A DNA stretch of 63,066 nt, the filler included, from Asterionella formosa (lineage: Eukaryota), in the NCBI GenBank assembly GCA_002256025.1. It is 16 parts of 16 records of this genome, joined end to end, with 100 filler letters (N's around TTAATTAATTAA, not from the genome) between each part and the next. Parts side by side here need not be neighbours in the genome. Positions count along the whole stretch, not along the records: positions 1 to 21,574 come from NKIB01003003.1; positions 21,675 to 43,239 come from NKIB01003006.1; positions 43,340 to 44,657 come from NKIB01003023.1; positions 44,758 to 46,075 come from NKIB01003024.1; positions 46,176 to 47,492 come from NKIB01003025.1; positions 47,593 to 48,909 come from NKIB01003026.1; positions 49,010 to 50,326 come from NKIB01003027.1; positions 50,427 to 51,742 come from NKIB01003028.1; 8 more parts are not named here. The stretch is one strand, 5' to 3'. Shown in pieces: positions 4,694 to 63,066 of this stretch (its first letter is position 1; each line of letters starts with the position of its first letter). The notes under the pieces are model-generated. The model was given only the letters and a program-made list of their open reading frames with translations. It searched no databases and was not told where the DNA came from. Position numbers and translations under genes: made by a program.

Positions 4694-5284
4694 AACAATG
4701 AACGTGATGGCTGGTTATTGAGGATACCGGTATGTGATAGGCATCAATCCATGTCACAAATCATATTATAGTGATGTACATATCAATGCATCTGTATACT
4801 TAGATCCTATCCACTGTATAATACCATCATATTAACTGTTGACAGTAACTGTATACATTAAACGACAAACATATATATTAATTAACATATTTTATGATTG
4901 CTTGATTTATATTCTATGATGTCTTGGTAATACCTGCGTAAATATTTTATTGTACTTTATTGTCATTGTACTATTTTTACATGATCATATTTTGATCAAA
5001 ATTATATCATAAACATTTTATAAAATCAAAATAGTTTTTTTGATCAATGTATCATAGCTATGTGATGTACTTTAGTCAATATTACGTATCATACTTTGGT
5101 GATGTATGCATCGATGTAACCATATCATGATATCACGTTATCATCTTATCAATCATGATGAGATGATTGGGAAGCAACTGTATTATGCATCATGCTATGG
5201 GGTATATCATTATATCACGCAATTTAGTAGCTAACAAGTCACTCCGCCTGTAATGTACTAAAGTCGACAGTGCACATGCCGGTA

Positions 5285-5735
5285 CTCACATGCTAATCAG
5301 GTCTGAGGCAACGTACAGTGGTTCCAACGAGCGAATGATGATACCACGGGTACCAATTTTTCCAGAAAAAAAACTATTTTCTCTATTGATGAGGATGACA
5401 TGGACAGGGACACCGACTTTTCCAGGAGCAAACAACAATGAAGAGACCCACTTCGTCTGCGTCGCTCTATTGATGGTAACAAAGATGCGGACAAGTTCAA
5501 CAGTGAATACAAGAACAACATACCAATGAAAACAAGTCCACAGTGTGTGCATGCACACGCCAAGCAAGTTTGAGGCAACGGACAATTCCAACAAGCAAAT
5601 GACGATACAGATATCAAATTCTTCCTATGAGCAAACAACAGTGAAAAGAGCCACTTGCTTTCGCTCTCTTGCTTGATGGTATCAAAGATGCGGACAAGTT
5701 CAATAGTTAATTCAAGTACAGTATGCCAAATGCAG
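5285..5735. repeat. Diverged internal tandem duplication (about 267-bp period) in the element
   Basis: TGAGGCAACG at 5304 and 5571, and AAAGATGCGGACAAGTTCAA twice. Also present inverted at about 32420-32880. Confidence 0.8.
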
Positions 5736-6381
5736 AAACGAGCAAGCGATATGAAAATGAAATGCATTCTAATCAGAATCATTCTATAACTATAGCTATG
5801 TGGACAGTAGTCTGTTATGCACATTTTCGTATCTCCTTCTATATTGAATCTCAATAGTAGTGCTAGATGTAATATCATGTGAGAATTGAAAATGTCAAAG
5901 AGAACAAGTACCGGTAGAATGTGTCTGTTTACGGGATGGTTGGCAAGATTGTCATGCTGAAGTGGATGAAACGGATATACTTTGTGCACTGCATGCGGAA
6001 ACATTACGAGTTTGAATGGTTTCTTCTTTCCTGTAAACTCTTAATTGAATGGCTGATTATGAACAAAGGTACACTGCACATGACGATTACTCGAAGATAT
6101 AAAGATCACTTGACCAACAAGTTGAAGATGTTATCACAAACATTCATTCCGCTTGTCATTGCTAGTATTTCGTTGTTGTTGCAAAAATCGGAGTGATGAC
6201 GGATGAAAATGATGAGCCAAATTACATTACTTGAACTGGTACATTGTCCTACCAAGAAATTCGAATACAGGAATCAAATAGAAACAATACCTATAATAAT
6301 TAAATATATGTAGTCAAAAGGGTTACTATTTAAATTACAAAAGCATTTATCAAAATTATTAGATGATATAACGAAAAATTA

Positions 6382-6443
6382 TGATCAGATGATCACAATC
6401 CTATGATGCATCATGGAAATATGATAGTTTTTATTTGCAGACA
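6382..6443 (-). repeat. Terminal inverted repeat of the Plavaka-type element
   Basis: Nearly identical to 15721-15780 and to the reverse complement of 31734-31795. Contains the palindrome ATGATGCATCAT. Confidence 0.85.
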
Positions 6444-10462: not shown

Positions 10463-10612
10463 AACTAAATAGAAGTTGTATCAGGTAGCTTCTGTATTTG
10501 TAGTATAGTATTACCAGCAGGTTTGCCAGTAGAGTATACTAGCAGGCTGTACCGGCAATTGGTACCAGGTACGGAGGAAGTCTGTTCTTGGTATACCTCA
10601 GAGTACTTGAGT

Positions 10613-11791
10613 GGGCGCGCTCTAATAATAATAAATTATTATATCATGTGTGTATTATAACACAAATTATTCTGGTGATCTGCTACATAATATCGTCCTT
10701 GCGCTCTGATAATAGAGATATTTTAGATTACTTCTCTGACATTATGTATATTTTTAACTTAAATTTTCAACAGTTAAAATTTTCATATTGATGCATCCTC
10801 TTGTATGCTATGCCGCCTCTTGTTCATTTTATGCATGAGTTCTATATATTCATCATCGTCGGTCTGCTTCTTTCGAGCTCCTACACCAGCTGTTCAAACC
10901 TTGTTTTTATTCCTTCACTCCCTGTAGGAAAAATACGGATTTCATTGTTAGAAATTCAACAACAAAGAAAGGTCGGCAAAGATACCTCTGTTCCATCAGT
11001 TGTCTAGCACTTGGGTTAGCATGGACCAGGACTCTTGGAAACGTTGGTGCTTGCCTGGCAGTTGCCGTTCTTGAAACTGTTAGGGTTAGACCCAATTGGC
11101 AGGTGAGTAGAAATGGCTTGCAGCAATGAGAGAATCTCATTGATCCTGAACTGTTGACTCCGACTCTGCATGCTTCAGCGAGCTCTTGGAAACGTTGGTG
11201 CTCGCTTGGCAGTTGCCGTTCTTGAAACTGAACAAGTAGGAGCACGTGAAAAGTCCATCCTACTGTCCTCATCGTCACTGGCAAACTCATCAGCACCAGT
11301 GTCATCTTCATTCTCGTCGTCGTCCTCCTCCTCTTCTTCTAGTTGAGTCTGTTGTTGTTCTTGTTGCTGGTGACGGCGACGTTCAAGCAGCCTTGGAGAG
11401 GAAGGGAAGCCCTCCCTGGCTGCTCTCCTTTGACCAGAAGAAGATGAAGACATGGCCGAAATCTAAAAGCGATGACGATCGATTTATTGAGGAGGTTGAT
11501 TGATATGTAACGATGTGCATATGTACATGCATACCCATTTTGGCAAGAGCAAGCCATTATGAGTATGAGCAAGCAAGTCTTGAAATATTCCGGTAAATTC
11601 TATATAGTCATTCATGTCTAAACATCTTTTTATATAATGCACTGTTATTTATAACTGTAAAATTTTTATGTGAGGTGCTTACCAGGTTTACCAAATTTGG
11701 TCAACACAAACACAAATTTTGGGGTTATGGGTACAACGATTTGTGTTATAATACACATGATATAATAATTTTTTATTATCAGAGCACGCCC
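10613..11791. mobile_element. Non-autonomous TIR element (about 55-bp TIRs GGGCGCGCTC..., AGT/ACT flanks), PIF/Harbinger-related (PHIS) group likely
   Basis: 10613-10668 is the reverse complement of about 11739-11791. A second copy at 54676-55262 ends at the same base. Confidence 0.8.
11175..11453 (-). pseudogene. Gln/acidic-rich ORF N-terminus inside the TIR element
   Basis: MSSSSSGQRRAAREG...QQQEQQQTQLEEEEEDDDENEDD. Paralog near 54720-54951 carries a 4-nt frameshift. Confidence 0.5.
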
Positions 11792-12194
11792 ACTATCGAT
11801 TCACTGTAGATCAACAATCCAAAACGGTAGTGCGTACCTGGTAGGTTTCCAAGAACGGACGACGATCTCGTCACCCAGTGAATCAGAACTTCCACTGACG
11901 AGAACGAACTACCGGTACTGGTACCACTAGTGGTATTGTGGTACGTTAAGAAAAAAAATGTGTGCAGTGATCGTTTACTGTGGATTATTTCCGTAGCCAA
12001 AATAGTGTAATGGTCGGGAAAAACAAAACTTCACGACGAAAAGGAAAAAATGCCAATGTGGCGAATGAGAGGAAGAAGGCACCTTTTGAATGCCAAATAA
12101 CACCCTTTTGATAGAGATTACTCAATACAATTGACTACTGCTACTGTGTAGTGTATTATACAGCTGGACAGATGCAGACGACAAATGAACGATG

Positions 12195-15847: not shown

Positions 15848-15849
15848 AT

Positions 15850-21574: not shown

Positions 21575-21674
21575 NNNNNNNNNNNNNNNNNNNNNNNNNN
21601 NNNNNNNNNNNNNNNNNNTTAATTAATTAANNNNNNNNNNNNNNNNNNNNNNNNNNNNNNNNNNNNNNNNNNNN
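21575..21674. other. Artificial contig spacer (first of 15)
   Basis: 44N-TTAATTAATTAA-44N. Repeated at 43240, 44658, 46076, 47493, 48910, 50327, 51743, 53160, 54576, 55992, 57407, 58822, 60237 and 61652. Confidence 0.97.
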
Positions 21675-25250: not shown

Positions 25251-25331
25251 TGGCAGCTACATTAACAAGGAACTGAGATTCTAAAGTAGTATTTAACTAG
25301 CTGTAGAGGGACCAGTACTCACGGGAATTAA

Positions 25332-28402: not shown

Positions 28403-28424
28403 GTAGCTAAGCAGATCAAATCAG

Positions 28425-42389: not shown

Positions 42390-42660
42390 GACCCACTCAA
42401 AGAGGACCAATATGCAAGCTGGTTCTACAGGCGATAGTACCAGGCGCCTACATGTCATAAGACAGACCTCGCAGGACTACACCTAACGGTTTTCCCCGTT
42501 GAGGAGTTGTATGGGAAAAACTCGAAATATTCCAGACAAGGATTACCCACTCAAAGAGGACCAAAATGCACGCTGGTTCTACAGACGGTAGTACCAGGCG
42601 CCTGCATATCATAAGACAGACCTCGCAGGACTACACCTAACGGTTTTCCCTGTTGAGAAC
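42390..42660 (+). repeat. Tandem duplication (about 154-bp period) upstream of the methyltransferase paralog
   Basis: ACCCACTCAAAGAGGACC...GCAGGACTACACCTAACGGTTTTCCC occurs twice; a single related copy at about 26594-26692. Confidence 0.85.
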
Positions 42661-43141
42661 AAATACCCCCTACATACCCTGAGGTATACATACCAAGAAT
42701 TTACCATCTGGAGAAGTAAACGTGAAGTACTGCCCCACTGGGGAGATAATATCAATCCGTCCATGGACGAAGGATTGCAGGAGTGTGTTGGACGTAGCAG
42801 ATGGCAAGACAAACAAATCAGAAGCCAAATAAAAAGAATTATGTAATGAGACAAAAGGATCAGGAAATGATGACGACTGGATCATACTTATGTAGACCAA
42901 AAAAGAATTAGGAGGATGATGTCACCGGAATCACCAACAAGACTGGTATTAAGAAAAAATATATGATAAACAAAATAAGCGCAACATGGAAAAGCTCATT
43001 CTATTTTAAATCTCTGGTTTACAAATATTTTTGACCACCCTAACTCTGTTTCACACCGGATCTGTTGCTTGATTGGCACAGAGGTGTTGCAACACGAGCA
43101 GTGGTTTCTACATACCGGACCAGAAGAACGAGTGTGAAAAA

Positions 43142-43239
43142 ATGGCGGAACATATTGCAAAAACAAGTTTCGTAATGAAACGTAAGGGTGGTTTAACGTT
43201 TCGTAGCCAAGTCAATATCTTCTTTGTCCTCCTATTCGT
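43142..43239 (+). CDS. 5' end of a paralog of the 27098 methyltransferase (cut by the gap)
   Basis: MAEHIAKTSFVMKRKGGLTFRSQVNIFFVLLF vs MAEYIAKTSFVMKRKGGLTFRYIFFVLLF. About 500 bp of upstream sequence is also shared. Confidence 0.8.
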
Positions 43240-44929: not shown

Positions 44930-45150
44930 GAGTCGGACAGAAGTGTCATGTTTATGACAAGTCTCTTCGTTCCAACCACTCCTCATATTCGAAACCCGTT
45001 TGATTCGTCGTTGTGGCAAGTTTTGTTGTGTTGCGCAGGAAGTCACAAATAGGTGGGAGACATCCATTGACCAAGTCGGACAGAAGTGTCAGGTCAGTTC
45101 TTGTCACATCTCTTCGTTCCAACTCCTCTTATTCGAAACCGTTTGATACG
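44930..45150. repeat. Diverged tandem duplication (about 145-bp period)
   Basis: GTCGGACAGAAGTGTCA and TCTTCGTTCCAAC..CTCCTC.TATTCGAAACC.GTTTGAT each occur twice. Confidence 0.75.
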
Positions 45151-45505
45151 GCGAGATACAACCTTCCTCGCTGTTTCCCAAGTCCAATGGTACCACCAGA
45201 ATGCAGCAAAGTTTTCTTCCCATTCATGATCCTTGGGACTTCGTCATGTTGTGCCGTTGCAACGCACGATAATTGGTGATGTACCGCCGCAATAGCAGCA
45301 GTCATAGACATTTCGTGTTCTATTGATTTTTAGTTTTACGATCATACAATCCTAAAACTATGATGATTTACTGTCCCACTGCAGTAGCAACAGTCCTGAA
45401 CATATGGTGTTCTGTTGCTAGTTTACTACTCCGACTACCCCCAGTATATCACTTACTACCTGCTACTGGTACCCTGTATGTATATATGATACATTGTTAT
45501 TGTCA

Positions 45506-46075
45506 TATGATGTCCCGGTACACATGAAGAGCTCCCGCCCAAAAAAGGGGCTTAAACAATTTGCTACCAAAACCCTTGCGGCATTTGAACGGTCTAAATA
45601 AACAAATTTCAGAGATAATACCGGTACACATACCGGTAGTCGTGAAAAAAATGGACATATAGTGCATTGAGTATTTTCGAATTATGTATATGCGAGTATG
45701 ATCATCTCAACCATATCAGATGTTACATATCGAGAGCGCCTTTGAATTTTATAAAATGTTTAACACTTAATATATATATATATATATATTTACAAATTTT
45801 ATTGTTATATTCATGGCCAATATATTTTTCAAATCGTTCTGTCATGTTAACAAACAATGCCTGCTGCTTCATGGAAACATATGTCGTAGTAAAGCACATG
45901 ACAAGAAAAGAAAATTTTTGCAATACATAACGAAAAACATTGTGACTTCGACACATTGCGCCTTCGAAGGATGGAGAATGTTTAAGGTAATGAAGCCATC
46001 AATGTGCGTGGTACTTGGATGACAATCGTTGGGAGGCAGGCAGGCAGCACAACAACAAATTGTTAACTAAACACA
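45506..46075 (+). mobile_element. Plavaka-type subterminal arm fragment
   Basis: Homologous to about 14563-15175. Confidence 0.75.
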
Positions 46076-46175
46076 NNNNNNNNNNNNNNNNNNNNNNNNN
46101 NNNNNNNNNNNNNNNNNNNTTAATTAATTAANNNNNNNNNNNNNNNNNNNNNNNNNNNNNNNNNNNNNNNNNNNN

Positions 46176-47492
46176 TCCTACAAGGACGGAACAACTACCC
46201 CAATGGCACGCGCTACGCAAAGTAGGGGCAGTAGGCGATGGTGTATCCTTTCACAACGTGGATGACGAAGATGGAACGACACTGAACAACAACAGCGAGA
46301 ATGGTGCACGGAAAAGGCCAAAAGGCAAGGCGCACATCATGTGCCACCGATGCCAAAAGAAGGGGCACTATGCCATGGAATGTGAGGAGCCTGCACCTGT
46401 CCCTAGGAATTTGACTACTAGTAATCCTCCCGCAGCTGAAACATCAACCCAGTCCGCCACCACACTATTAATGGGGGCTGGCATGCATGAGGATGAATTC
46501 GAGGAAAATGTCCACTTCCAATTTTTAAATCAAGGAGGAGTGAGTCTAAAGATTGGGCCTGATGGAAGGCTACCACATACATGGATACTATTAGACAACC
46601 AATCAACAGTTGATGTGTTCCATATTGCGGAACTCTCACGCAGCATCCATATCCACACCAGTAAGATGGATATCCACTGCCTGCAACAGCTTATAATCAG
46701 CACCCAACTCATAGGAGACCTTCATGGATACGGAACAGTACTATGGTACAACCCAAAGGGGATCGCGAACATCCTGTCCCTTGCACGTGTCAAAGAGCAT
46801 GGATACAGGGTAACGTTTGATAGCAGCCAGGGCAATGAATTCCATGTTCACAAACCTGACGGAACCTGTAGAGTGTTCAAAGAATCAATGAAAGGCCTAT
46901 ATTACATGGATACAAAGGATAGCTCCCTCGTCTGGAGTCACACTTATCAATACGGTAGACGATAACCGTACTAGCTACTAATCCCAACATGACTACTCAC
47001 AAGCTGTGCTAGCTCGAAAGATACAGAAGATTATTGGACGTCCTAGTACCCACACATTCATCAAGATTGTCGAGAACAACCTGTTCCCAAACTGCCCAAT
47101 CACATGCGATGAAATTATAGCGGCAGAACGAATCTTTGGACCAGATGTGGGTTCGCTAAAAGGGAAGACAGTACATCGCAGCTCAGTGCCAGTCAGGACT
47201 AGCTCTACCAACATACCCGCCAGGGTTATCGATAAATACCGTAAGGTAACACTTGCAGGTGACATCATGTTTGTCAACAGTATGCCCTTCCTCGTTACCA
47301 TATCAAGACACATCAAATTTAGCACAAATGAGCTCCTTGAAAACCAATGGCTACCAACAATAATCAAGGCCATTGACAATGTGCGCAAGCTCTACAAGAA
47401 AAGAGGTTTCCACACCAAAACAATCATCATGGATGGACAATTTGACGGACTGCGGGCCAACTTAGCCGAAATGGGAATGACACTCAACAGTT
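46176..47492 (+). mobile_element. Diatom-type Copia (CoDi-like) gag-pol fragment: Zn knuckle, protease, integrase start
   Basis: CHRCQKKGHYAMEC, WILLDNQSTVDVF, WYNPKGIANILSL, IFGPDVGSLKGKT, LAGDIMFVN, MDGQF. Confidence 0.85.
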
Positions 47493-47592
47493 NNNNNNNN
47501 NNNNNNNNNNNNNNNNNNNNNNNNNNNNNNNNNNNNTTAATTAATTAANNNNNNNNNNNNNNNNNNNNNNNNNNNNNNNNNNNNNNNNNNNN

Positions 47593-48909
47593 CCCTGTCC
47601 CACCTTCTCTCCTTATCCCAAATTTGGCATTGGTCCTGGCACAGCATCCTCCTCATACTCCCTCCCTCACTCATACTGGCACTTTCACACCTCTTGCTCA
47701 TCGTATCACCACCCCTCATACTTCCACTCGGCAAACCAATGCCTCTCACCAGCAGCCCTCATCAACCCCAACCCCTTCCCACCCTTTCCGTCAATGTGAG
47801 GACATCCAGTGTGTAGCCTGTAGTACTTGGGGCCATTCTGCTTCTCGCTGTTCCTCCCTTGCCAAAGCTGCCCTTCTTCAGACATACATTCTTGCTAATC
47901 CCTCCCATGCTGAGAATGCTGCCACTGCTTGGAGGAATCTTCATAGCATGAACCATTGTCAGGCCATTGCCCGTCATCTTCAACACCTCCATCCTGAAGA
48001 ATTTTTACCTGACCTCCATGTAGATGATATTTATGAAGCAAATTTTCTCTAGGCCGGTCATTCTCCCCTTCCAGGAATGATGAACGGCTACGGGTTTGCG
48101 GAATGACTGTCAGAGAGAATTCTTCTCCTAATAGTAGGACTCTGTCGTTGCCGCTTCCTCTTCCTCTGAAACCTTCTTGTCCATCTTTAAATCGCCTTTA
48201 TACCTGTGCATTCACCATTCCTCATCTTCCTACTGATTGTTTTGACTGTTTTTCCCTTGTTCATCCATTTCTCCCCTATGCCAACAATTCCAACACTCTT
48301 CTCCCTATTGCTCATGTTGCTCGGCTCTGTTCTGAATCCACAGGTCTTCACCAATGTGACCTAGGTGCAAATGTCTGTGCTACATCCACTCTATCACTAC
48401 TCCAGAACTATACTCCCCTTTCTGTTCCCGTTGACCTTCTAGGTGCTGATGCATCTGTTCAGGGTATGCTCTGTCCAGGTTATGGTTATTATCCACTCCA
48501 ATTCTCTGATGGTTCTACCACCCCTGTCATCATGTACTACTGCCCTCAGTTGTCTGAGACTCTTCTGTCCCCACAACACATCTGCACTCAAATGTCCAAC
48601 AATTACTCTGGCTTTGATATTTGCTGCCAGGACCTTGATCAGGCATACATTCGCTTCTATGGCCCTTCTGGATGCTTCTCAGTTATTGCACCCTTGACTA
48701 GATCAAATAATCTTTTTTATTTCAATCAGATTTCCTTTCAGCCCACCACACACCGCTTATCTCCTATTCTCAGCTCAGAGTTGTGGCATCAACGACTTGG
48801 TCATCCTGGCATGCATCAACTTCGCCATCTTCAACAATGCAGCACTGGCCTTCCTTCTGATCTCCATCACCTTATACACCCACTCCATCATTGTCCCATC
48901 TGCAGTCAA
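47593..48909 (+). mobile_element. Copia gag end, protease and GAG-pre-integrase fragment
   Basis: CVACSTWGHSASRC, QCDLGAN, LWHQRLGHPG...CPIC. Confidence 0.85.
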
Positions 48910-50189
48910 NNNNNNNNNNNNNNNNNNNNNNNNNNNNNNNNNNNNNNNNNNNNTTAATTAATTAANNNNNNNNNNNNNNNNNNNNNNNNNNNNNNNNNNN
49001 NNNNNNNNNACATAGTAATTAATAGCGGCGGTGGTATCTTAATTAATCTTCCGGTATCTGGTAGTCTACCAGGTCTACCTACTAACGGGCACACAGCGAT
49101 GAGCATGATACCGATTCCTGGAACTCCGAATTGGTAGTCTTGTACGCTACCAGGTAGTCTACGGAGTCGTACGGTAGTTATTACTTGAAATGGTGCTGCA
49201 GCTGCGACAGTCAAAGTAAACACAAGGAGATTCCTGATTCCCAGTTAGCTTATGGGTGTTTGAAAATAGAACTAGTATTCCCCTTCATAGTTTTGATATT
49301 GAAACAAGCAATAGAAAATATTAGTTAGATGTCCTTACAATCACTCTTAAGTAACTCTCAGAAGGTGCTAGGTTGTATCTATGTTGACAAAACCCCCAGA
49401 CTGATGGTCATTGTCTAGAGAAAACAGATTCAATGTCCCAGAGCAATCAGCCAATGAACACTGATTGGATCTAGGATTATGTCTAGAACATCTAGACCTT
49501 ACAGCATACTTAAGTAAGATTAACCACTATTTTAGGAAGAGAATGTCATCCTAGCCTCCACAAACAAAGGAAGAACAATTCATAACTGAGACATGTCTGA
49601 ACTTGATGTTTCATTTAAAATACATTTCAAATTATGGTTCAAATCAAATTCTCCTTTTTACAACGATAGCTAAGAAACCATATAGCAAAGACATCGCTCT
49701 TGGGAACATTTTTCTAAGAAATGTTCATCTAGGCGTGTTGCTGGCGGAGACATACTGCAAATTTGATGGTAATACTTTATTGCCATTGTATGATGAAGCA
49801 GTTCACTGCTCTGGTTTTGATCTCATCTAAACTGATAGTCCATCTTTATTGAGAATACGATGATTACACATGTAATAAGGTTATCTACCTAACGGTAGAG
49901 TATCTGGGATGGAAACTGATGATCGACTCGAAAGCCAATTTAGCTGGCCTTGCACTTAGACATGTATATGGTAGCTGTGGAGGAAGCCGAACCAACTGGG
50001 TCGAACTTAAGTCATGTTGTCAGCAGTCAACTAAATGCAACTCGATAACAATAAATGTGAATGTACATAAAATAAATATATATATATATCTCTTTTTGGC
50101 AATAACAGTCTGGTCGGTCATTATTCCTTCACTCATTTAATGACGAATCACAGGTTGTGATCCTGATACTGATAATTCGATTGCGATCT

Positions 50190-50324
50190 TTACGCCACCT
50201 CCATTTGCTCACCTCCACCAGTGGTAGACTCCAACTTCTGCCCCGTCTGCTTCTTTCGCATTGCAATTCTCGCTCGTGCACTGTCCACAACATTGCGCAT
50301 TACCTCCTCTCTATCGGCCACAGC
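50190..50324 (-). CDS. Probable 3' end of an unidentified host gene
   Basis: Open frame from the gap, AVADREEVMRNVVDSARARIAMRKKQTGQKLESTTGGGEQMEVA-stop, followed by AT-rich sequence. Confidence 0.4.
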   Translation of the reverse strand, partial: AVADREEVMRNVVDSARARIAMRKKQTGQKLESTTGGGEQMEVA

Positions 50325-50499
50325 CGNNNNNNNNNNNNNNNNNNNNNNNNNNNNNNNNNNNNNNNNNNNNTTAATTAATTAANNNNNNNNNNNNNNNNNN
50401 NNNNNNNNNNNNNNNNNNNNNNNNNNTCCATTGTTGTCTTACAGATACAATAGAATACAGTCCGAACTTGTGGATTTAACATAATTAGTAAAGAAAAAG

Positions 50500-51742
50500 G
50501 TGAATACAATGGGAGGTGGCAATACGGCAGCCGATGATGGTGGCGGCGGTGATGCCACACCAAAAGACAAGAAGGAAAGTGTTGGTGGCAAGAAGCTACC
50601 ATATCGATATGGAATCCACGGAAACCAGAAGAATGCTGTCCCACGGCAGCCCAAGTTTGAAGGGAAGTGCGACGAGTTGAAAGGTCATGTCTACGATTGC
50701 TCAGATGCAAGACAGGCAGACTTGTTTATCAAGACAACAAAGGAGGTGGCCGAGTTTGTGGGGCGGACCTACAAGTATGGCGGTGACATCCGATTGGCAG
50801 TAGAAAACCTGCAGGTGCCAAACATCGCTGAGCCATATGACCCACCAGCAGGCGCATCCAGGACTCAGGAGCGCATTTGGGAAAAACAGGTAGATGAATA
50901 TGTTAAGCGAACAACCTACATAAGCGAGAATATTAAGACCCTATATTCACTAGTCTGGGGCCAATGCACAGACATTATGAGGCAAAAAATCGAGGCTTTG
51001 CATGATTTCGAGGAGATGTCGACCAACGGTGATGGTCTTGCATTACTCAAAGCAATCAAAAACACTGCTTTCAACTTCCAAAGCCAAAAGTACCTTCCAC
51101 ATTCACTGTATGAATCGACTCGGCGTTTCTGCATGACGGTCCAAGGAAAGTATATGACAACCCAGGCTTATCTTGAACAGTTTCAAAACATGATAGATGT
51201 CATTGGACATACAGGAGGAATGGTGGGCCATCAACCAGGAATCGAAAGAGCCATAATGAGGAAGAGGGGCATTGATCCAACAAACGCCACAACCATGCAA
51301 CAAATGGAAATAGAGAAAGAGCCCAGAACCGCTATTTGGCTGTTGCATTCATGCTTGGTTCGGATAAGGCTAGGTTTAGTCGCCTGCTTGAGAACTTCTT
51401 GGAGAATGACTATCTCCAAGGCCAAAATAATTACCCAACATCCATCACTGCAGCCTATAATCTGCTTACTAATTGGAAACAAGACCCCCGCAATCTCATA
51501 CGTACAAGTGGACCAGTCAGCGATGGAGTATCATTTACCAATGTAGACGGTGAACATGGAGAACAAGACATTGCGCTTGCAAACAATGGACACACTAAAT
51601 CTGGACGAAATAAACTGTCACACATCACATGCCACAAATGTGGCAAACAGGGACATTTTGCTGACAAATGCGAAGAGGAGCAGCGTCAGGAGCATCAAAC
51701 TGGCTCCATGCTTTTGACGGCAGGTATAGAGAATGGAGAATT
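50500..51742 (+). mobile_element. Diatom-type Copia (CoDi-like) gag, one frameshift near 51325
   Basis: KFEGKCDELKGHVYD, LYSLVWGQCT, GDGLALLKAIK, LENDYLQGQNNYP, HITCHKCGKQGHFADKC. Same family as 46176-47492 (shared DGVSF.NVD). Confidence 0.85.
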
Positions 51743-51842
51743 NNNNNNNNNNNNNNNNNNNNNNNNNNNNNNNNNNNNNNNNNNNNTTAATTAATTAANN
51801 NNNNNNNNNNNNNNNNNNNNNNNNNNNNNNNNNNNNNNNNNN

Positions 51843-53159
51843 TATTATTGCTGCAACTTGACATTATGACCATTCTATGATGTTGGTGACTGTTCCAATA
51901 TCAAGATAAGGATACAATCTCGTTCTATACAGCCTCCCAGTCAATTGAGATGTCCAACATCATGGAAAGATCTCGTAGTTGTAAAGTTATGGAATATCCA
52001 GTAATAGAAACCTATCATTTGAATTTTGTGTATTATTGCTGCAACATGACATAATGACCTTTCTATGGTGTAAGTCCTTGTGCCAATATCGAAATAAGGA
52101 TACAGTCTCGTTCTATACAGCCTCCCAGTCAATTGAGATGTCCAACATCATGGAAAGATCTCGTAGTTGTAAAGTTATGGAATATCCAGTAGTAGAAACC
52201 TATCATTTTAATATTGTGTGTATATGCTGCAACATGACATGATGACCATTCTATGGCATTAGTCATTGTTCCCATTTTGAGATTTGGATACAATCTCATT
52301 CTATACAACTACCCAGTCAATTGAGATGTTCAACATCTTGGAAAGGTCGCAAAGTTGTAAAGTTATGGAATGTCCAGTAGTAGAAACCAATCATTTGAAT
52401 TTTTTGTGTTATTGCTGCAACATGACATGATGACCATTCTATGGCATTTGTCATTGTTTCCATTTTGAGATTTAGATACAATCTCGTTCTATACAGCCTC
52501 CCAGTCAATTGAGATGTCCGACATCATGGAAAGATCTCGTAGTTGTAAAGTTATGGAATATCCAGTAGTAGAAACCTATCATTTGAATTTTGTGTGTAAT
52601 TGCTGCAACATGACATGATGACCATTCTATGGCATTAGTCATTGTTCCCATTTTGCGATTTGGATAAAATCTCATTCTATACAACTACCCAATCAATTGA
52701 GATGTCCAACATCATGGAGTGGTTGCATAGTTGTGAAGTTATGGAATATCCAGTAGTAGAAACCTATCATTTTAATATTGTGTGTTATTGCTGCAACATG
52801 ACATGATGACCATTCTATGGCATTTGTCATTGTTCCCATTTTGTGATTTTGATACAATCTCATTCTATACAACTACCCAGTCAATTGAGATGTCCAACAT
52901 CATGGAGTGGTCGCATAGTTGTAAAGTTATGGAATATCCAGTAGTAGAAACCTATCATTTGAATTTTTTGTGTTATTGCTGCAACATGACATGATGACCA
53001 TTCTATGGCGTTTGTCATTGTTCCCATTTTGTGATTTTGATACAATCTCATTCTATACAACTACCCAGTCAATTGAGATGTCCAACATCATGGAGTGGTC
53101 GCATAGTTGTAAAGTTATGGAATATCCAGTAGTAGAAACCTATCATTTGAATTTTTTGT
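51843..53159. repeat. Tandem satellite, 188-bp monomer, 7 copies filling the whole contig
   Basis: CTGCAAC anchors at 51851, 52039, 52227, 52415, 52603, 52791 and 52979. Confidence 0.96.
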
Positions 53160-53259
53160 NNNNNNNNNNNNNNNNNNNNNNNNNNNNNNNNNNNNNNNNN
53201 NNNTTAATTAATTAANNNNNNNNNNNNNNNNNNNNNNNNNNNNNNNNNNNNNNNNNNNN

Positions 53260-53533
53260 ATCCAGGATAGTAATCATCTAAAATGTTGGTCCGAAGATTC
53301 TTTTTGTTTCTTGTTCTTCCAGCAGCTTCTTTCTTTTTCGATTGTTCCAGACAAAATCCCTCGTACCAAGTTGGGACAATGTACTCTTGAGGAGGATAAC
53401 GTACTCCTGCTGTTGTTCGTGCTGCTGCTGCAGTTGCTGTTGCTATTTTTCTTGCTGTTTCTTCTGCTTCTGTGGTTTCTTCAGCTTCTACTTTCACTTC
53501 TACTGCGTTTGTTCTTTTAAATCTGTCTGTCAT
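53260..53533 (-). CDS. 5' part of an unidentified ORF
   Basis: MTDRFKRTNAVEVKVEAEETTEAEETARK... stays open into the gap; GA-rich leader upstream. Confidence 0.45.
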
Positions 53534-54424
53534 GATGATTACGATGATAATGCTGAGAAGGGTGTCAATGACGTGGAAAAGAGAGAGAGAAAGAGTGAGG
53601 GAGAGCGAGAGATGACAACGACAAGGGTGACGTTTTTTGAAGAACCAATAAAAAATGTGGGAAGATAGCATTACCGCAAATTGCGGTAAATTTCCTGAAA
53701 CTAAAGATTTAGTTTTCTTTATCCGATATTAAATTGTTTATTTAAGCAAAATGACCGCAGCTTGCCGGTATACGGACCGATGAGACATAAAAATAGTTCA
53801 TTGCTTTAAATGTATTCATGTATATATATGTAAAATATGGTTAGGCAGGCTCTACTGGACAATGGTGAGTCATACACTTGCTGGATTGTGTTGATGTGCT
53901 TGAGTACCGGTACCAGGTACCTTGTACCAGGTACTCCCTACCAGTTGCTCCCTTTACCTGGTACCAGGTACCAGGTACCTATTTACATACCGGTGTACAT
54001 TTCAGCATCATATATATATGCTTATAATTTTATACAGATATATCGGTATGCATTGGCACCAGTACAGGTATCTCTGTACGTTTGTATCATAGGTACCTGG
54101 TACTGGTACCTTGGTTTAATATTGTGCCGTGGCTCAGTAAACTGTGTACATGATTTTTTTGTATCCACATCCTCTGCAACTACGACCGGTACTCAGTACA
54201 GTACCAGGTATTCCTTACCCAGGTTGCTAAAAAGCAAAGAAGAATCTTTGCCAGGCACACACTACCGGTACGTAGTATCAGCCAGCAAAGGAAAGTGATG
54301 GACTAAAATAAAATGTCGGTATAAAATCTTGATCGTCTTCGATTGCCATATACTCTCAATCCTTCTTCTTCTTCTTCTTCTTACTATTATTAATTATATT
54401 ATTATAACCTCTGACTGCAGATCA

Positions 54425-54575
54425 ATGAGGAGTACTACCATCACAGAGCTCCCTCTGGTCACAGCCAACGATGGCGCTATTATTCGTTCCTTTGAATTGT
54501 CCAATAGCAGTGGGATTGTTGTTGTCCTTTCCTCGGTCGGTGCTTCCATTCAATCCATCCTAGTTCCTAATTATT
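54425..54575 (+). CDS. Aldose 1-epimerase (galactose mutarotase)-like N-terminus
   Basis: IRSFELSNSSGIVVVLSSVGASIQSILVP matches the GalM pattern F.L.N..G..V.....GA.I.S..VP; cut by the gap. Confidence 0.65.
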
Positions 54576-54675
54576 NNNNNNNNNNNNNNNNNNNNNNNNN
54601 NNNNNNNNNNNNNNNNNNNTTAATTAATTAANNNNNNNNNNNNNNNNNNNNNNNNNNNNNNNNNNNNNNNNNNNN

Positions 54676-55262
54676 TTCATTGTTAGAAATTCAACAACAA
54701 AGAAAGGTCGGCAAAGATCAATCTGAGAAACACCTGGGACACCCATCCTACTGTCCTCATCGTCACTGGCAAACTCATCAGCACCAGTGTCATCTTCATT
54801 CTCGTCGTCCTCCTCCTCCTCCTCCTCTTCTTCTGGTTGAGTCTGTTGTTGTTCTTGTTGCTGGTGACGGCGACGTTCAGCCAAGCAGCCTTGGAGAGGA
54901 AGGGAAGCCCTCCCTGGCTGCTCTCCTTTGACCAGAAGAAGATGAAGACATGGCCGAAATCTTAAAGCGATGACGATCGATTTAGTGAGGAGGTTGATTG
55001 ATATGTAACGATAGCTATGCATATGTATATGCATACCTATTTTGGCAAGAGCAAGCCATTTTGAGTATGAGCAAGCAAGTCTTGAAATATCCCGGGAAAT
55101 TCTATATAGTCATTCATGTCTAAACATCTTTTTACATAATGCACTGTTATTTATAACTGTAAAAAATTTGTGGTTGTGTTGACCAAATTTTGGGGTTATG
55201 GGTACAACGATTTATGTTATAATACACATGATATAATAATTTTTTATTATCAGAGCGCGCCC
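54676..55262. mobile_element. Second copy of the GGGCGCGCTC-TIR element (right part)
   Basis: Homologous to about 10940-11791 with an internal deletion; ends GAGCGCGCCC|AGT. Confidence 0.85.
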
Positions 55263-56091
55263 AGTACCGGTAGCTAATTGTCTCGAAGTTACATCGCTTC
55301 CTATATTTGCGATACTGAAAAGAATAGGGTGTGGTGGACTGTCTATCAGGTGGTACCGCTACCTGGTACAACAGTATATACCGGTACACTTGAAAGCATG
55401 GAATACATCCATATTAATTACCGGGATGTAATCATGTGGTAATTTACAGCGATTTGGACTGCATACCGGTACACATCATGATGTTCCTATTTGGCGGCTG
55501 TACACATGTACTGTATGTATACCAGACTGCAGGCAACATTTCTGCCGCGTATCTTCTCCATGCATATGTTACTCGGTTTTTCTGGGACTTGGTACAGGTA
55601 TCTGGGGGGTACCTGATACATGTCATACCGGTATCTACAGTACCAGGTACCACGTACCCAGCTATTGTTAATACCTTTCTCAATTGCCGCGTATCGGATC
55701 TTATTACAGGTACATACATACTACGTATGTATGTAGGACTGTCCTTTTATGATTTATGATACTATGGAGCACTGGTATTCGGTACCAGGTACGGTACTAC
55801 ATATACTCTGGTCATCGATTATAATAATTAAGAATATCCAGTTGTCTTTTACCGGTAGGAGTAAAAATCATTCCTATACTGGTAGGTGCGCACTGTCAAG
55901 CGTTCCATTTTCCTTGGATCGCCAAGCCATTGCTGTGTGCCATTACGATGTGGTCCGTATCGCTCAATTCCGAGATCTACCTGTACTTGTGNNNNNNNNN
56001 NNNNNNNNNNNNNNNNNNNNNNNNNNNNNNNNNNNTTAATTAATTAANNNNNNNNNNNNNNNNNNNNNNNNNNNNNNNNNNNNNNNNNNNN

Positions 56092-57406
56092 ATATATGAT
56101 AAAATGTTATGATCATATGATGCACACACGAAGAACTCCCGCCAAGTAAGGGGCTTAAATAATCAGCTACCAAAATCCTTGCATATAAATAATGATACAC
56201 ATGGGTTGTGACTTACACCAATTTAATGGTCTAAATAGTTAGTTCCAACAGACATAGAAGATATTGATGCAAACAAATTTCAGAAACAGCACCGGTACAC
56301 GAAATTGTGGAAAACAATGGACATATGGTGCATTGCATATTTTCGAATTATCTATATGCAAATATGATCATTGGTACTAGCAGATGTGCCATATTGAAAG
56401 TGCCTTTGAATTGTTTAAATGTTCGACACTTCATATATTTACACATTTTATAGCTATATACCTGGCAAATATATTTGAAATTGTTCTTTCATGTTAACAA
56501 ACAATGCCTGCTTCTTGAGAAGAAATATCGTAGAAGCATATGACAAGGAAAGTTTACGCAATAACGAAAAACTCTGTGGCTTCGATACATTGCGCCTTCT
56601 ATGGATGGAGTATGTTTAAGGTAATGAAGCCATCAATGTGGTACATAGATGACAATCGTTGGGAGTGGACAACAACAAATTGTAAACTAAATGCACGTTT
56701 CCTTTCTTCTCAGTTGATTCAATAGCTCATTTCGCTTGTTGGGGAGCACCAATGTAAAATAAAACAAAATTGGTAAGTGCTCTTGTCGTTGGACCTATTC
56801 ACTCTTGATGGAACATAACTGGCGGACACGCCATGCATGTTTACCTTCTCTCAAAGTTAAGCTAACGAAAATGAATCGGTAAGTTCTATTCGACAACATT
56901 GGATACCTGAAACTTGCTTACTTATTCAAGAATTTACTGACAATTTACTATTACAGACTTATGCATCACTTGCTTTGATTTGGCTGTGGTAAGTGAAGCA
57001 AGCAAGAGGATACGACGGAATTGCGTGATGTTGTGTCAGTGTAACATGTCTAGCTAACAAGTCATTCCTTCTCATTGTTACCACTGTAACTGTATAGAAC
57101 AATAAAAACAATCAAACAAAGAAATAGTCGGCGAGTTCAGAGTGTCACTTACAGCAGGGAGAGAGTCGATACCTTAAGCACTGCATGGTACAAGATTCAG
57201 AATGTAGGAAGAAAAGGGCGAGACAGGAACAATATACATTGAGCCAAGTGGAGAGAGAAACATTGGTTTGCTGGCCTGTAGAATCATAGATAGCACTGCT
57301 AAATTTGATAGTTAAATTACGATCCATTTCAATCTATTTTGAACAAAGCTCGTGATTAGAATTATGATCATGTTTAGGATAGATATATGATGAAACAATT
57401 GAAATG
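56092..57406 (+). mobile_element. Plavaka-type subterminal arm copy
   Basis: Homologous to 14563-15670 and 40678-41600. Confidence 0.8.
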
Positions 57407-60400
57407 NNNNNNNNNNNNNNNNNNNNNNNNNNNNNNNNNNNNNNNNNNNNTTAATTAATTAANNNNNNNNNNNNNNNNNNNNNNNNNNNNNNNNNNNNNN
57501 NNNNNNAAAACATGACAGGTTTTTCCTTTTATGTCGCTATGGCTGTACCGGTAGGAGTAGAAGTGCGTATCATGATCTGTCGCAAGTCGGCAAAGCCAAT
57601 GAGTTGAGGGTGAACACCAGCCAACATGACTACCGGTACTTCCCCAGTACATTGTACGTACCAGGTACCTGGGTACCTGGTACCAAATATTCCATGTACT
57701 GCTGGATGCAGTCTGTTCGTATTTTCTTAGCATGCTGCATAGGCTTTGTTTCACCAGACCAGCGCTGACGGTTCCATTTCGACTCGTGCTAACAGTATGT
57801 AGCCGTAAGTACCGGTAGATACACATAAAAAAAAATTATCCTCAGGAGCGGAGTTTGTACATACCAATGTAGAGTAACAGGTACCCCCTGGTACCAAGGA
57901 ACCTTCTGCAAATTGGGATACCGGCAGCATGCGTAACTCCTGACCTAACCCTATGCAACAGATTCACGTTTCGCTGCTCAAGTTTAAGTAAGATGTCAGT
58001 TCCCTGCTTACCGGTAGTAAGATAAAAGTTTCCTCGGTGGGAAGGCCGGCGTGCATGCATTTTACCCCGCCGGCCCATCCCAAAGGACGTCAACATATTT
58101 TTACAGCGCCTTTAGTTTTTGCGGCGAATTTTGAAACGTGCATAAAAAATTCACTTCCATGTGTACAAGCACGTTTTCCGTATGTCCCCTGTTTTCTAGT
58201 ATACATCGCGAGCGATGTCGAAGGTGCAATTTAACTACCAGTGCAGTACATGGCAACGACTGTATGTATGCCCATAAACAAAGGTTTCGCTGAGAGTTAA
58301 TTATTTTTCGGACACTTTCGCAGTACATATCGATAGCCATAACTGTTTGTACCTGCTACCTGGTAGACGATCTTGTAGCATCCAACAAATATATTAGGTA
58401 CATGTAAAAATGACTGGTAGCCTGCTACCGTACTCCATGTAGGTTCATCATATCATGTGCAATTGAACTAACAGCTTTATTTTTTTACTTTCAAATTAGT
58501 GTACCGAGCCTGCTATCTCCTCCCCGACATCCTCTACGGAGCGGGGACTAAGTGGCCATTTAATATATTTTTACTCCTGGGAGTACGGTACCTACCGGTA
58601 TTTCATTTATTTATGTGTGAACGCCGGTTGTGCTTGATATGCAAAGCTCATTCAAGGTTGCGGGACTACCTATGAAGGTACAATATAAATGTTGGAGCAC
58701 TCCCGGTCTACGTTTACATGTTGTGCATATTTGAATTTTGTGTCAAGAAGAGATGCATTTATCCACGTACATTCTTTGAAGCATCACAATAATAGGTTCA
58801 CCTATTGAGGCTTCTCGTATTNNNNNNNNNNNNNNNNNNNNNNNNNNNNNNNNNNNNNNNNNNNNTTAATTAATTAANNNNNNNNNNNNNNNNNNNNNNN
58901 NNNNNNNNNNNNNNNNNNNNNCTGTATTTGTATGATTACTTTGTGGTTACCATTATGAGTCAATATGGATCAATATTAGAACCATATGATCAAATATTAT
59001 AAGTATAAACATGCTTATCAAATATTCATATATAAGGGCCGTTCTTATAATTTTTTTTCGGGTATCACGGAATTTGAATTTTTTTGAAAATGTATCAGCA
59101 ACGGTAACTCGATTTGAACTGAATTTCATTCATTCCAAAAGTGTCACTGTATCACTAATTTGTGATCACAGTGTATCATAAAAACAACCATGCATGGTTT
59201 AAACTAGTATGCTTTAACGCTTACTTTGAACTCGTTATAATATTATCTCTGTAGACTCGGTATTATTTTTACGAGACCTGAAATGTTGAATTATATTGTT
59301 CACATATTCATTGATTTTACGTACCGTATGCCCGATTTCGTCCTCACAAATATAGTTCTCACTCTATCTTGCCTGCCTTTGCTCTATTCGGGCTTGCAAT
59401 AGGCAATGTTCGTCTTTCTTTGATCCCATAGTCTGCTGCTTTTTATGCTAGTTGAAGCGGATTGGTGAGTACAACAGTGAAATACTGAATGTGGATTGTA
59501 GATCGTATTTATCGACTTTCCGATTTGATTGCTTCCGTGGTTTGTTTTGATTGCTTCCATCGTTGTTTGTTGTTACGCACTGTCGTTTTGTTTCAATTGT
59601 ACATATCTACATAAGAACCAATGCATTTATCAATGACTACTCATTGAAGATGTGGTATTGTGCCGTTGTTGATCGTATTTGTTGATTTGAATAGTCATTG
59701 ACAATCATGTCAATATTGCCACCAAGCAATGCTTTTCTTGTACTAACACGCTTTGCTACATTTCTACTACAAGTTCGTATCAGAAGCTACATGAATACTC
59801 AGCTACAGAGAGTCAATAGTGCTGGAGCAGCGTGGCGATCATGCTTGCTCAGAATGGAATGATCAGGGTTGCTTGTTTGGTGGGCAGAGAGGAATGACTG
59901 TGGCGGAAATACTGCTACTGGTGTCAGGCTGCTACTAGAGCGATGCGCATGGTTGCAGCAACCCGAAAATTTACGCTAGATAACGATGCAGGTCTAAATT
60001 GGGTTCAGCTTTTTTTATTCTTCTTTCGGTCTTCGATTTTGTGTTGATGGAAAGTCAATGTGGCCTGTGGAAGTACTACAATGATTCACAATGCATACGT
60101 CTCCATTGGAACTATTATTTTTTAATTTCATTTCTAACCCAAAACAATTTTTTCTATTTCTCATTTGATGCTACTTATTACATCGCATTTCATACTTTGG
60201 TTGCTCCAAACATCATGTTCAATTTTCATTGATGTTNNNNNNNNNNNNNNNNNNNNNNNNNNNNNNNNNNNNNNNNNNNNTTAATTAATTAANNNNNNNN
60301 NNNNNNNNNNNNNNNNNNNNNNNNNNNNNNNNNNNNGGGGGATACAGGACACCAGCTTTGTTGGCACTGCATACCTGAGTTCGCCCATTCCCCAAACCTA

Positions 60401-60955
60401 CCTAGTATCTGGTTAAGGTTCCTGCATTTGAACCCCATAGGCAAAAATTAAAATATTGCTTCGGGTTACCGAAATTCCCTGGAACTAAGAACTTTTATGT
60501 TCTAATTTTGAATATCAATGATTCCGTTTAAAATATTGAAATCAGTGGAAATGTGCGTGTACGAATGTATCCTTTTCAAATTCATTAAATATGTATAAAC
60601 AGATTCTACATCGCTTAATGTATAAAAAGCTACTCTACCGATAGTATACCTACTCGGATCAACAAATATGTATCATATGCATGACCTGGCGGCTCAGAAA
60701 AATATTTGAATGTGCATCCTGGTACTATGACCAATGATGATCAGCTACCAGTACCTGGCACCGGTAGGTTTACCCAGTACCTGGTGCTCATTATTCCTAC
60801 TCCATACGGATACTGGTATAAGGGAAGCATTGGCCAACACCCAAGAAAATGCTTCATGTGCATCCAGTGTGGCCGGCGTGGGATTGCAAGAACTCGCAAA
60901 CCGTGCCAATCGAACGGATATAAGTATAACCAATCAGAATATGAATAGTACAGCA

Positions 60956-61052
60956 TGTAATTACAATGGAACTTTTTTCTACAGGAGATTTTATGACTAA
61001 AATTGTAATTACAATGGAACTTTTTTCTACAGGAGATTTTATGACTAAAATT
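60956..61052 (+). repeat. Perfect tandem duplication, about 48-bp period
   Basis: TGTAATTACAATGGAACTTTTTTCTACAGGAGATTTTATGACTAAAAT occurs twice. Confidence 0.9.
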
Positions 61053-61238
61053 TTTCGCACAAGACTACCATTCTGATGATGACGTTTCGGCGATTAGTGA
61101 TTCTGATTCCGACATTTTGGTGACTGTTGAAAAAGCCGATATTGTCGAATTTTTGGACGGCAATAGCTCAATGTTGGCAGGGTTTGAAGAAGAGTTAAGT
61201 ACATAGGTAATCTTCAAATAGCCCCAGAAGTTAACTTT

Positions 61239-61362
61239 TGGTGAGAAACTACAGAAAGGAACTTCGGTTTCTTTACTAGGCCAAATAAACGAGTTGGCCT
61301 GGTAAAATCCACTATTTCAGCATAGTTAAAAAACCGAAGTTCCTTTCTGGAGTTTCTCGCCA
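61239..61362. repeat. Fold-back element with about 40-bp inverted arms (MITE-like)
   Basis: TGGTGAGAAACTACAGAAAGGAACTTCGGTTTCTTTACTA pairs with TAGTTAAAAAACCGAAGTTCCTTTCTGGAGTTTCTCGCCA. Confidence 0.8.
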
Positions 61363-61848
61363 GATCCTATATCCTGACAAAATGCAGCATTGACCTATGC
61401 CGCTACTTTGATAAATGACAGTATTTAAGCATATGGAAAGGGTGTGTATTGGTGAATTACAGTACACTACATTGTGGTTTTGAGCCTACATTCTGGTACC
61501 AGGTAGTACAATTAACTAACAACTGTAAGTTTGCAGATTTTTCCTTTCCTCAAAAGGCTCCCTCCCTGATGGTGTCTTCCTCTACTCCTTGGCGTCAGTA
61601 AATGCTTTTCTAGGTACAGATTGCGTAGAGCATATTAGGGGTATACTATCCNNNNNNNNNNNNNNNNNNNNNNNNNNNNNNNNNNNNNNNNNNNNTTAAT
61701 TAATTAANNNNNNNNNNNNNNNNNNNNNNNNNNNNNNNNNNNNNNNNNNNNACGAAACTCGCATATCGCTATCGATTGTTGCTCTTGACAGCGCCAAAAT
61801 AATCCAACTTTGGTTCTGTCTGAAACCGACAATGAATCATCCTCGTTG

Positions 61849-61896
61849 GCTGCTGCTCCTGCTGCTCCTGCTGCTCCTGCTGCTCCTGCTGCTCCT
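61849..61896. repeat. 9-bp minisatellite (GCTGCTCCT)x5
   Basis: Directly visible; would encode GAAGAA on the minus strand. Confidence 0.85.
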
Positions 61897-63066
61897 TCCC
61901 ATGCAGCATCCTGCTTTGACAACAATGGATGACGATATCCTACTGGGATCGTCGAAGACTCAAAGGACAATATTTTATAGATAGCTGCCGGTATTATTCA
62001 AAGGTTTTTGTACTTAAGTTTATTATTTGTCTACATCAAGAGAGTACGGTAAATGTGTATTGTAAGCGTTTGTGGATCAATGAAACAGTTGACGTTATGT
62101 TGCCGGCGCGAACCACAATCTAAACCAATAGAAATGCTCCTTTTATTTGGCTACAGTCGGAGTCTAATCGACCAAATACCAGATATTTGGTCGATAAGGG
62201 GGTCATCCTCGATCAAGACCAAAGCATATTTGGTCTTGGTCGATGCGGTGGCTAAAATATTTTTGCTTTTTCGACCAAAACAACGCATCATGACGTGTAA
62301 TGACCCGCAACTTCAATTGGCTTGGTATTTGGTCGATGCGGTGGCGATGCTCTTACGGTAGTTGTGTTTTCTAACTTTTAAAAATACCTGTACTCTAAAA
62401 CTGTTTGAAAACCGCTTTCACATACATGTAAAAGTATACATGTCGGTAATATAATAGCTCTGGAAGGACGACTGATGACATTTCGCGCTTCAAGTGGGTG
62501 TCCTACCGGTAGTTCATTTACTGATCGAAAGGTAGGTTAGGTACCTGGTACCTGTTACCTGGTATTGGGTTGACATTGTGTATGAACCATACAAACATCA
62601 GTTGACAGTTGACAACAGCAACTCTTCAAGCGAACATCTGCGCGAACATTTGCTTCCTTTTGTGTGCTCATGCTCACACATGTGCAGAGTCCTATGGGTC
62701 GAGATAGCCCGCAATGGCGCTGATACATAATTTTATTTAGCAGAAATACCGGCAATTTGATTCCATTGACCATAGGTACCATGTACCAGGTACCATTACC
62801 GGTACTGTACTATATTTAACAACCATATTTATACAATACAGTAGTACTACTACTGGAGACCAGATGACGATATCTGTCACCATTTTCTAATGTTCCTTGT
62901 TCCCTACCGTTATGCTCCGATGTACGTACTGCAGGTGCTAGTACTAACTAGTAACGTAAGAACAAATGATATTTATGATGAATCACAGTATGTACGTACA
63001 TTTTATCATGTTGGACAAGTGTGAAATTCCTGCCGTTGCTGTCCACATAGCGATTATGCAAGACAA

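Follow-up and report, generated by a model that had tools for sequence, protein, structure and literature searches.

What has written the same short palindromes, always bracketed by TA, so often into a few tens of kilobases of eukaryotic nuclear DNA? The question is raised by a stretch of 63,066 nucleotides of Asterionella formosa (assembly GCA_002256025.1; 16 joined parts, G+C content ~39%; hereafter the window), in which two words recur: TA-CCGG-TA (TACCGGTA) and TA-CCWGG-TA (TACCWGGTA, where W is A or T). We refer to either word as a strict unit. A first reading, made from the bases alone (the sequence-only reading), had reported both words as over-represented and attributed them to a transposable element with CC..GG or CCW..WGG ends that had repeatedly inserted and excised; its observation is confirmed and its interpretation is partly supported. 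TACCGGTA matched 28 times in the window and was the top over-represented 8-mer; dinucleotide-preserving shuffles averaged 0.29 matches and never exceeded 2 (0 of 100 reached 28). TACCWGGTA matched 22 times (shuffle mean 0.35, maximum 2). The words are real and TA-specific, and transposon excision scarring with some replication slippage is the most economical mechanism for them, with about an even chance of being correct.

The excess belongs to the TA bracket and not to the core. Among the 16 words of the form XY-CCGG-XY, only XY = TA was enriched (28 sites vs 0.46 expected); the other 15 occurred at 0-2 sites each, and the flanks of the 28 TACCGGTA sites were otherwise unconstrained. There are 44 runs among the 50 strict units: 41 hold a single unit, and one each holds two, three and four. 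Of the 50 units, 31 lie in 53260-63066, an uneven spread that must be kept in mind when window counts are read. The run of four, TA-CCGG-TA-CCTGG-TA-CCAGG-TA-CCGG-TA (26019-26046), reads as a perfect palindrome of 28 bases and stands exactly as the sequence-only reading quoted it. Three further chains from that reading are also present: 53905-53977 is three runs parted by degenerate units, 57659-57682 (TA-CCAGG-TA-CCTGGG-TA-CCTGG-TA) has CCTGGG as one of its units, and the chain given as 62541-62564 is two units at 62542-62564 around a mutated one.

Much of the window is repeated within it at 76-91% identity, and self-comparison yielded 236 indels. Seven distinct motif sites fell in paralog alignments: four face a 6-base gap at TA, three of them cleanly, two are shared between copies, and one pair (the units at 26830 and 26850) aligned poorly. 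The TACCGGTA unit at 5909-5916 faces plain TA in both of its paralogs, at 12556 and 32265, and that at 39181-39188 faces TA at ~2003, as had been claimed. The site at 5277-5284 likewise faces TA, near 32885, though its word is TGCCGGTA, a unit with one substitution, and not TACCGGTA. At all three, a duplicated TA in the filled copy corresponds to a single TA in the empty one, as in a Tc1/mariner footprint. Less clean is the pair of TACCGGTA units 4 bases apart at 45619-45638, with paralogs at 14741 and 56284. Its first unit is common to the three copies, mutated as TACCAGTA (14741) and CACCGGTA (56284), and its second (45631-45638) is missing from both paralogs, which show a 6-base gap and two substitutions. 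A further TACCGGTA unit, at 4725-4732, occupies the same ancestral site as 33393-33400 in an inverted paralog and is therefore older than that duplication. Taken together, the alignments at 5909, 39181, 5277 and 45631 identify exact 6-base indels at TA as the main mode of difference; units are made or removed as whole units. When contigs of four runs were aligned to 23300-43200, none of the 12 indels listed among 125 rows fell at a unit, in an alignment dominated by repeats and short contigs.

For comparison, metagenome contigs were scanned for the chain pattern GGTACCWGGTACCWGGTACC, which returned at least 124 stretches. Each locus was chosen for holding one chain, so that totals are inflated, but the contrast between spacer types described below is not created thereby. 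Comparison of these loci with one another by BLAST yielded hardly any allelic pairs, too few for an indel spectrum. A group of 23 contigs (256 kb, G+C ~0.45) carries long, intron-poor open reading frames (ORFs) with PAP_fibrillin, plastid-type sigma factor, DUF6824 (6 ORFs), HA and DUF285 domains. We take this mix to be typical of diatoms and call the group diatom-like on that assumption. Contig L006, which has five TACCWGGTA units, bears TTTAGGG-type telomere-like repeats at 190-1450. The window has interstitial repeats of the TTAGGG type (25010-25045), and 27 contigs of run X8 extend left from 25011 into a longer TTAGGG array. The two repeat types indicate that chain-bearing contigs come from more than one lineage.

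The enrichment extends to a wider grammar of TA, palindrome and TA. We counted as palindromic any filler of 2 to 6 bases between two TAs that is a palindrome, or is one apart from its central base. Such fillers reached, for lengths 2 to 6 in turn, 1.9, 1.35, 4.0, 2.5 and 1.6 times expectation in the window and 1.6, 2.4, 1.15, 7.7 and 3.0 times in the 23 contigs, as compared with 0.8-1.3 times for non-palindromic fillers between TAs. Palindromic fillers bracketed by AT, CG, GC, CA, AC, GA or AA were mostly at 0.4-1.4 times, with a few small-count outliers up to 3.9 times. In 373 kb of low-G+C metagenome contigs, we also counted fillers as graded series of x bases of one end plus y bases of the other. 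Ends of the form CTCC..GGAG gave CTCGAG (3+3) at 16 sites vs 0.6 expected, CTCCGAG or CTCGGAG (3+4 or 4+3) at 11 vs 0.2, and CTCCGGAG (4+4) at 4 vs 0.0. Ends of the form CC(A)..(T)GG gave CCGG (2+2) at 57 sites vs 6.8, CCWGG (3+2) at 621 vs 7.1, CCAG or CTGG (3+1) at 182 vs 31, and CCATGG (3+3) at 6 vs 1.1. Three control end sequences produced at most one site per cell from 3+3 to 4+4. Such graded lengths are expected from the end-joining of two inverted transposon ends; within the window itself, clear enrichment is seen only for 2+2 and 3+2. The fillers CCGG, CCWGG, GWC and CTCGAG are palindromic, or nearly so with a free central base, as Tc1/mariner footprints are.

The diatom-like contigs also reveal where such units accumulate. 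TACCWGGTA occurs there 305 times (3.7 expected), TA-GWC-TA 169 times (29.5) and TA-GC-TA 191 times (63), and intergenic DNA contains mixed chains such as TA-G-TA-GTC-TA-G-TA-CCAGG-TA-CCTGG-TA-G-TA-C-TA. ORFs of 200 aa or more hold 3 CCGG/CCWGG units in 141 kb (0.02/kb), and the 20 convergent spacers hold 1 in 9.8 kb (0.10/kb). The 42 tandem spacers hold 115 units in 53 kb (2.2/kb) and the 16 divergent spacers 46 in 17.6 kb (2.6/kb), so that 161 units have a promoter-side position. Strict chains with three or more units make up 0.2%, 0.4%, 4.3% and 4.7% of the bases of these four classes, respectively, and 0.02% would be expected in the same upstream DNA from first-order resamples. In tandem spacers, the distance from a unit to the ATG that follows it is 212-1673 bases (5th-95th percentile), and few units are within 300 bases of the upstream stop codon. 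This placement derives from the related contigs; in the window, the ORFs allowed no genes to be placed near the clusters.

What the data show is the enrichment, its dependence on TA and on palindromic fillers, the 6-base indels at TA, the graded series and, in relatives, a position upstream of genes; from these we infer a transposon origin, the identity of the transposon ends and gain as the direction of change. In the mechanism that we propose, a Tc1/mariner-type element would insert at TA and duplicate it. On its exit, each flank would retain TA and the first few bases of the inverted ends, and end-joining would leave, between two TAs, x bases from the left end followed by y from the right. 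Ends that begin with CC(A/T)GG could in this way yield CCGG (2+2) and CCAGG or CCTGG (3+2, 2+3, or overlap with a central mismatch). Each scar would supply a new TA, at which later events, together with slippage of a 6-7 base period, may build chains. In the related algae, scars may build up in non-transcribed upstream DNA because insertions are tolerated there or because that DNA is more accessible. We regard this account, Tc1/mariner-type excision scars in arrays partly lengthened by slippage, as having as much in its favour as against it.

Known footprints offer a close parallel. One account (PMC6943129) describes Tc1/mariner transposases as cutting the non-transferred strand slightly within the element, by a few bases, and end-joining footprints as the first or last 2-4 element bases between TAs; it gives TACAGTA or TACTGTA for Sleeping Beauty and 1-2 base footprints in some cell types. 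The same form is seen in TA-CC(A/T)GG-TA, TA-G(A/T)C-TA, TA-S-TA and the series CTC(C)(G)GAG, the odd-length scars occurring with either of two central bases. Unlike the Sleeping Beauty footprint, the odd scar here has 5 bases and not 3. Canonical Tc1/mariner footprints also differ from the present units, which reach 2-3/kb upstream of genes in the relatives, stack into chains, comprise several filler families and have no known donor. A second parallel is the cyanobacterial HIP1, a highly iterated palindrome. Like HIP1, TACCGGTA is an 8-base perfect palindrome, tens of times above its compositional expectation and spread through the genome. HIP1 is not, to our knowledge, an insertion at a duplicated dinucleotide, whereas the words described here behave as 6-base indels at TA and belong to a TA-bracketed family. 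Searches of open-access full text (subscription journals lay outside it) found no description of these words, only primer matches, and no relevant paper on mariner footprints or mariner-like elements in diatoms.

Several results weigh against excision scars. The sequence-only reading had proposed a search for an element with terminal inverted repeats (TIRs) and CC..GG ends and for a mariner-type transposase; neither turned up in the window or the related contigs, to which element searches were confined. TA-flanked CC..GG ends in the window (271 left, 263 right) gave 53 candidate pairs, all of them chain against chain or weak. The 364 window ORFs (91 of 90 aa or longer, 273 of 55-89 aa) had no match to a Tc1/mariner or other DNA transposase in Pfam. 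In the low-G+C contigs, 161 ORFs of 180 aa or more likewise gave no Tc1/mariner match. The sole DDE match among the latter was DDE_Tnp_4, of the PIF/Harbinger type (L076:16811-17374, E 1.8e-7). Because metagenome assemblies under-represent repeats, the absence from related contigs is weak evidence. No recurrent sequence follows TACCWGG in those contigs, as a shared transposon end would. A TIR search of all loci for TA-CC..GG-TA with 20-base arms returned only chain matches and one candidate, L076:7467-7934, which was also the only non-chain hit in a test of 61 end pairs (3 hits vs 0.01 expected). The CCAGG at its two ends forms a direct and not an inverted repeat, and the element may equally be GAAGAGAC...GTCTCTTC, inserted into an earlier TACCAGGTA with duplication of the 3 bases CAG; no additional copies of it were found. 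The search for a donor with matching ends thus comes down, in a sample as small as the 63-kb window and its relatives, to one ambiguous element.

Other points against scarring come from the units themselves. CCATGG (3+3) between TAs is absent from the window (0 vs 0.1 expected), and GC and GWC fillers are not derivable from CC..GG ends, so that further element families are needed. A load of 2-3 units/kb upstream of genes is far beyond any footprint load known to us. The direction of the indels fits gain and loss alike as judged from these alignments: in both three-copy cases, the two unit-less copies are 87.8% and 84.9% identical to each other, vs 76-84% to the unit-bearing copy. The unit-less copies are each other's closest relatives, and one loss on their stem fits as well as one gain. 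The arrays also lose force as evidence. The chain-pattern scan of prokaryote genomes gave at least 110 loci, of homogeneous (GGTACCW)n heptamer repeats. Such repeats occur in many bacterial metagenome-assembled and other genomes (Acidimicrobiia, Gemmatimonadaceae, Planctomycetota), several per genome in some and often beside other heptamer repeats; the pattern had no match in viral contigs. As plain (GGTACCW)n repeats are common in prokaryotes, arrays alone prove nothing. CCWGG units stand mostly in arrays (75-79% are followed by C), which slippage alone makes in prokaryotes. An early view of the 124 or more metagenome matches as a eukaryote-wide trait far above chance was dropped because of this prokaryote scan.

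These same arrays suggest that microsatellite dynamics might account for everything: a 6-7 base GGTACC/GGTACCW repeat would expand by slippage and then decay, leaving single units as remnants. At the prokaryote loci listed, adjacent units have the same W in 171 of 195 pairs, and high-G+C metagenome contigs are alike (84 of 93). The low-G+C algal contigs, too, have a surplus of same-W pairs (138 of 220), and another CC comes after most CCWGG units. Slippage clearly helps to build the arrays of these contigs, and it competes as an explanation with the chain growth by re-use of TA that the sequence-only reading had advanced. W differs, however, in 82 of the 220 algal pairs as against 24 of the 195 prokaryote pairs, which fits partly independent events; the algal chains are in this respect unlike the prokaryote arrays, with which they share the 20-base word. 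Single units in unrelated contexts (41 of the 44 window runs), clean 6-base indels at an isolated TA that has no template beside it, TA-specific enrichment of other palindromic fillers, and mixed-filler chains that are not tandem repeats all argue that slippage alone is a rather improbable origin. A break-and-repair process independent of transposons would dispense with the donor and transposase that were found in neither the window nor the related contigs. A nuclease, perhaps a domesticated transposase, would cut at TA in accessible upstream DNA, and fill-in of the 2-base stagger plus a few symmetric bases would write TA-palindrome-TA without the passage of any mobile element. The very high unit density upstream of genes suits this idea, as does a second 2-base-duplication signature in the window, XY-GC-XY (~17 events), by which repair here is seen to make such products. 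Unlike CCGG and CCWGG, however, that signature is not specific to TA. The fillers, moreover, are particular words that come in graded lengths (CTC(C)(G)GAG, CC(W)GG), which points to defined ends and not to untemplated addition; we think break and repair unlikely.

Selection is the force invoked by another alternative, in which the units are GGTACC- or ACCGGT-type sites for dimeric factors in promoters, locally multiplied, and the indels are deletions between TAs. The contrast between tandem or divergent spacers on the one hand and convergent spacers and ORFs on the other, and the distance to the next ATG, are what such sites would show, and the paralogs accommodate loss of units as readily as gain. 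Promoter function gives no reason for exact 6-base indels in decayed repeat copies. Several unrelated palindromes have only the TA bracket in common, the flanks of the window's TACCGGTA sites are unconstrained, and the one related contig compared with the window (L009) aligns over only ~100 bases, in which positional conservation was not demonstrated. We therefore consider regulatory selection a doubtful origin. The units might, finally, be targets and not scars. A vertebrate Harbinger element has a palindromic target centred on CWG, and PIF/Harbinger-type elements, which duplicate 3 bases, could prefer the CWG centre of CCWGG. The element at L076:7467-7934, with CAG on both sides inside TACCAGGTA, is clean when read in this way, its contig encodes the DDE_Tnp_4 protein, and a high-copy TIR element in the window (25332-26532) is flanked by TAA; both elements lie in or beside units. 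The L076 element is a single case, and a target preference leaves unexplained the origin of the units, the TA bracket and TACCGGTA, which has no CWG. Moreover, PIF/Harbinger duplications are of 3 bases and not TA, and the ends GGTTGCGG... and GAAGAGAC... give neither CCGG nor CCWGG. This explanation is very improbable.

If the units are true scars, they are a record of an enormous number of insert-and-leave events. Excision footprints, usually a single-locus curiosity, could then shape whole promoter regions in a major algal group and would add a new origin for regulatory sequence and for short indels, and the k-mer signature of TA, palindrome and TA would trace the past activity of vanished elements. 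A bolder extension, which we offer with much reserve and consider unlikely, is that diatom-like algae have a transposase system, either free-living or domesticated, which cuts at TA and goes on adding TA-bracketed palindromes to accessible DNA upstream of genes. A measurable share of promoters (4-5% in strict chains, as given above) would then be scar tissue, and GGTACC-type arrays may have been co-opted as promoter or chromatin elements. If the units are not scars, a TA-specific process that writes palindromes stands unexplained and is worth finding.

Besides the chains already described, units cluster at several places in the window. A cluster at 26061-26176 has TACCGGTA at 26061, 26112 and 26169 and TA-CCCTGG-TA-CCCTGG-TA at 26125-26142. 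Two TACCGGTA units lie within a 20-base tandem duplication at 26830-26857. Nine strict units stand among many degenerate ones in 53905-54270 (53905-53919, 53925-53933, 53955-53977, 54094, 54202 and 54263), eight units in 55265-55857 (55265, 55360, 55379, 55464, 55626, 55641, 55783 and 55850), and eight strict units in 57546-58600, which includes the chain at 57659-57682. Five, with mutated units between them, occupy 62504-62804 (62504, 62542, 62556, 62784 and 62797). Single TACCAGGTA units were found at 10563-10571, 49148-49156 and 61497-61505.

Elements of other kinds lie close to some of these units. The 1.2-kb, high-copy TIR element at 25332-26532, with ends GGTTGCGGCCC...GGGCCGCAACC and TAA on both sides, carries the units at 26019-26176. 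Its flanks make it a 3-base-duplication element (PIF/Harbinger-like) and not a TA element. Its contig depth is ~100x that of neighbouring single-copy DNA, and contigs of all four runs join 25331 to 26537, which identifies it as an insertion polymorphism. Another 1.2-kb element, at 10613-11795, has inverted ends of ~55 bases (GGGCGCGCTCT...) and AGT/ACT-like flanks, not TA; immediately to its right lie TACCTGGTA (11835-11843) and TACCGGTA (11910-11917). The right end of a partial second copy (54743-55264) abuts the TACCGGTA unit at 55265. In a low-G+C contig that also bears chains, L067:12965-13422 is a clean TA-flanked TIR element of 454 bases with GCAG...CTGC ends (GCAGATCGCAAG...CTTGCGATCTGC). 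TA-flanked TIR elements are thus present in such contigs, which counts in favour of the scar account, and L076:7467-7934 may be another. Ends of the CC-A-GG type usually mark mariner proper, and CTCC-type ends plant mariner-like/Stowaway elements. End-core searches of the loci found no CTCC..GGAG element. The short end motif of plant mariner-like/Stowaway elements had 39 loose matches in the loci and gave no element, one good end near L070:8824 being without a partner. L047:4263-9289 and L050:5149-7729, considered as TA-flanked TIR elements, were dropped as chance matches or gene paralogs inside long ORFs.

The remaining content of the window is sparse. In its 91 ORFs of 90 aa or more, Pfam matched nothing except copia-type retroelement fragments (gag_pre-integrs, zf-RVT, Integrase_H2C2 and RVT_2) and one methyltransferase gene (27098-28156), and scans of the window matched no tRNA genes or Rfam families. 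Parts of 25500-29500 were found in runs (20 rows from 14 studies) that bear the label of an algae metagenome or of a freshwater, riverine or lake one. Indels of 4 bases are the largest size class in the paralog alignments (54 of 236). The XY-GC-XY events, in which XY becomes XY-GC-XY, have TG, GG, TT, TA, GT, AC, AT, CT or CA as XY (e.g., 6050, 15459, 35846, 55014 and 56913). All XY-GC-XY words except CGGCCG stand at 1.4-2.8 times expectation, and we know of no mechanism for these insertions. Thirty runs of exactly 44 N (21575-21674; 43240-61751), paired 12 bases apart with pairs about every 1417 bases from 43240, look like masking or scaffolding and not biology. A tandem array of ~7 copies of a 188-base unit, 82-91% identical, occupies 51845-53159.

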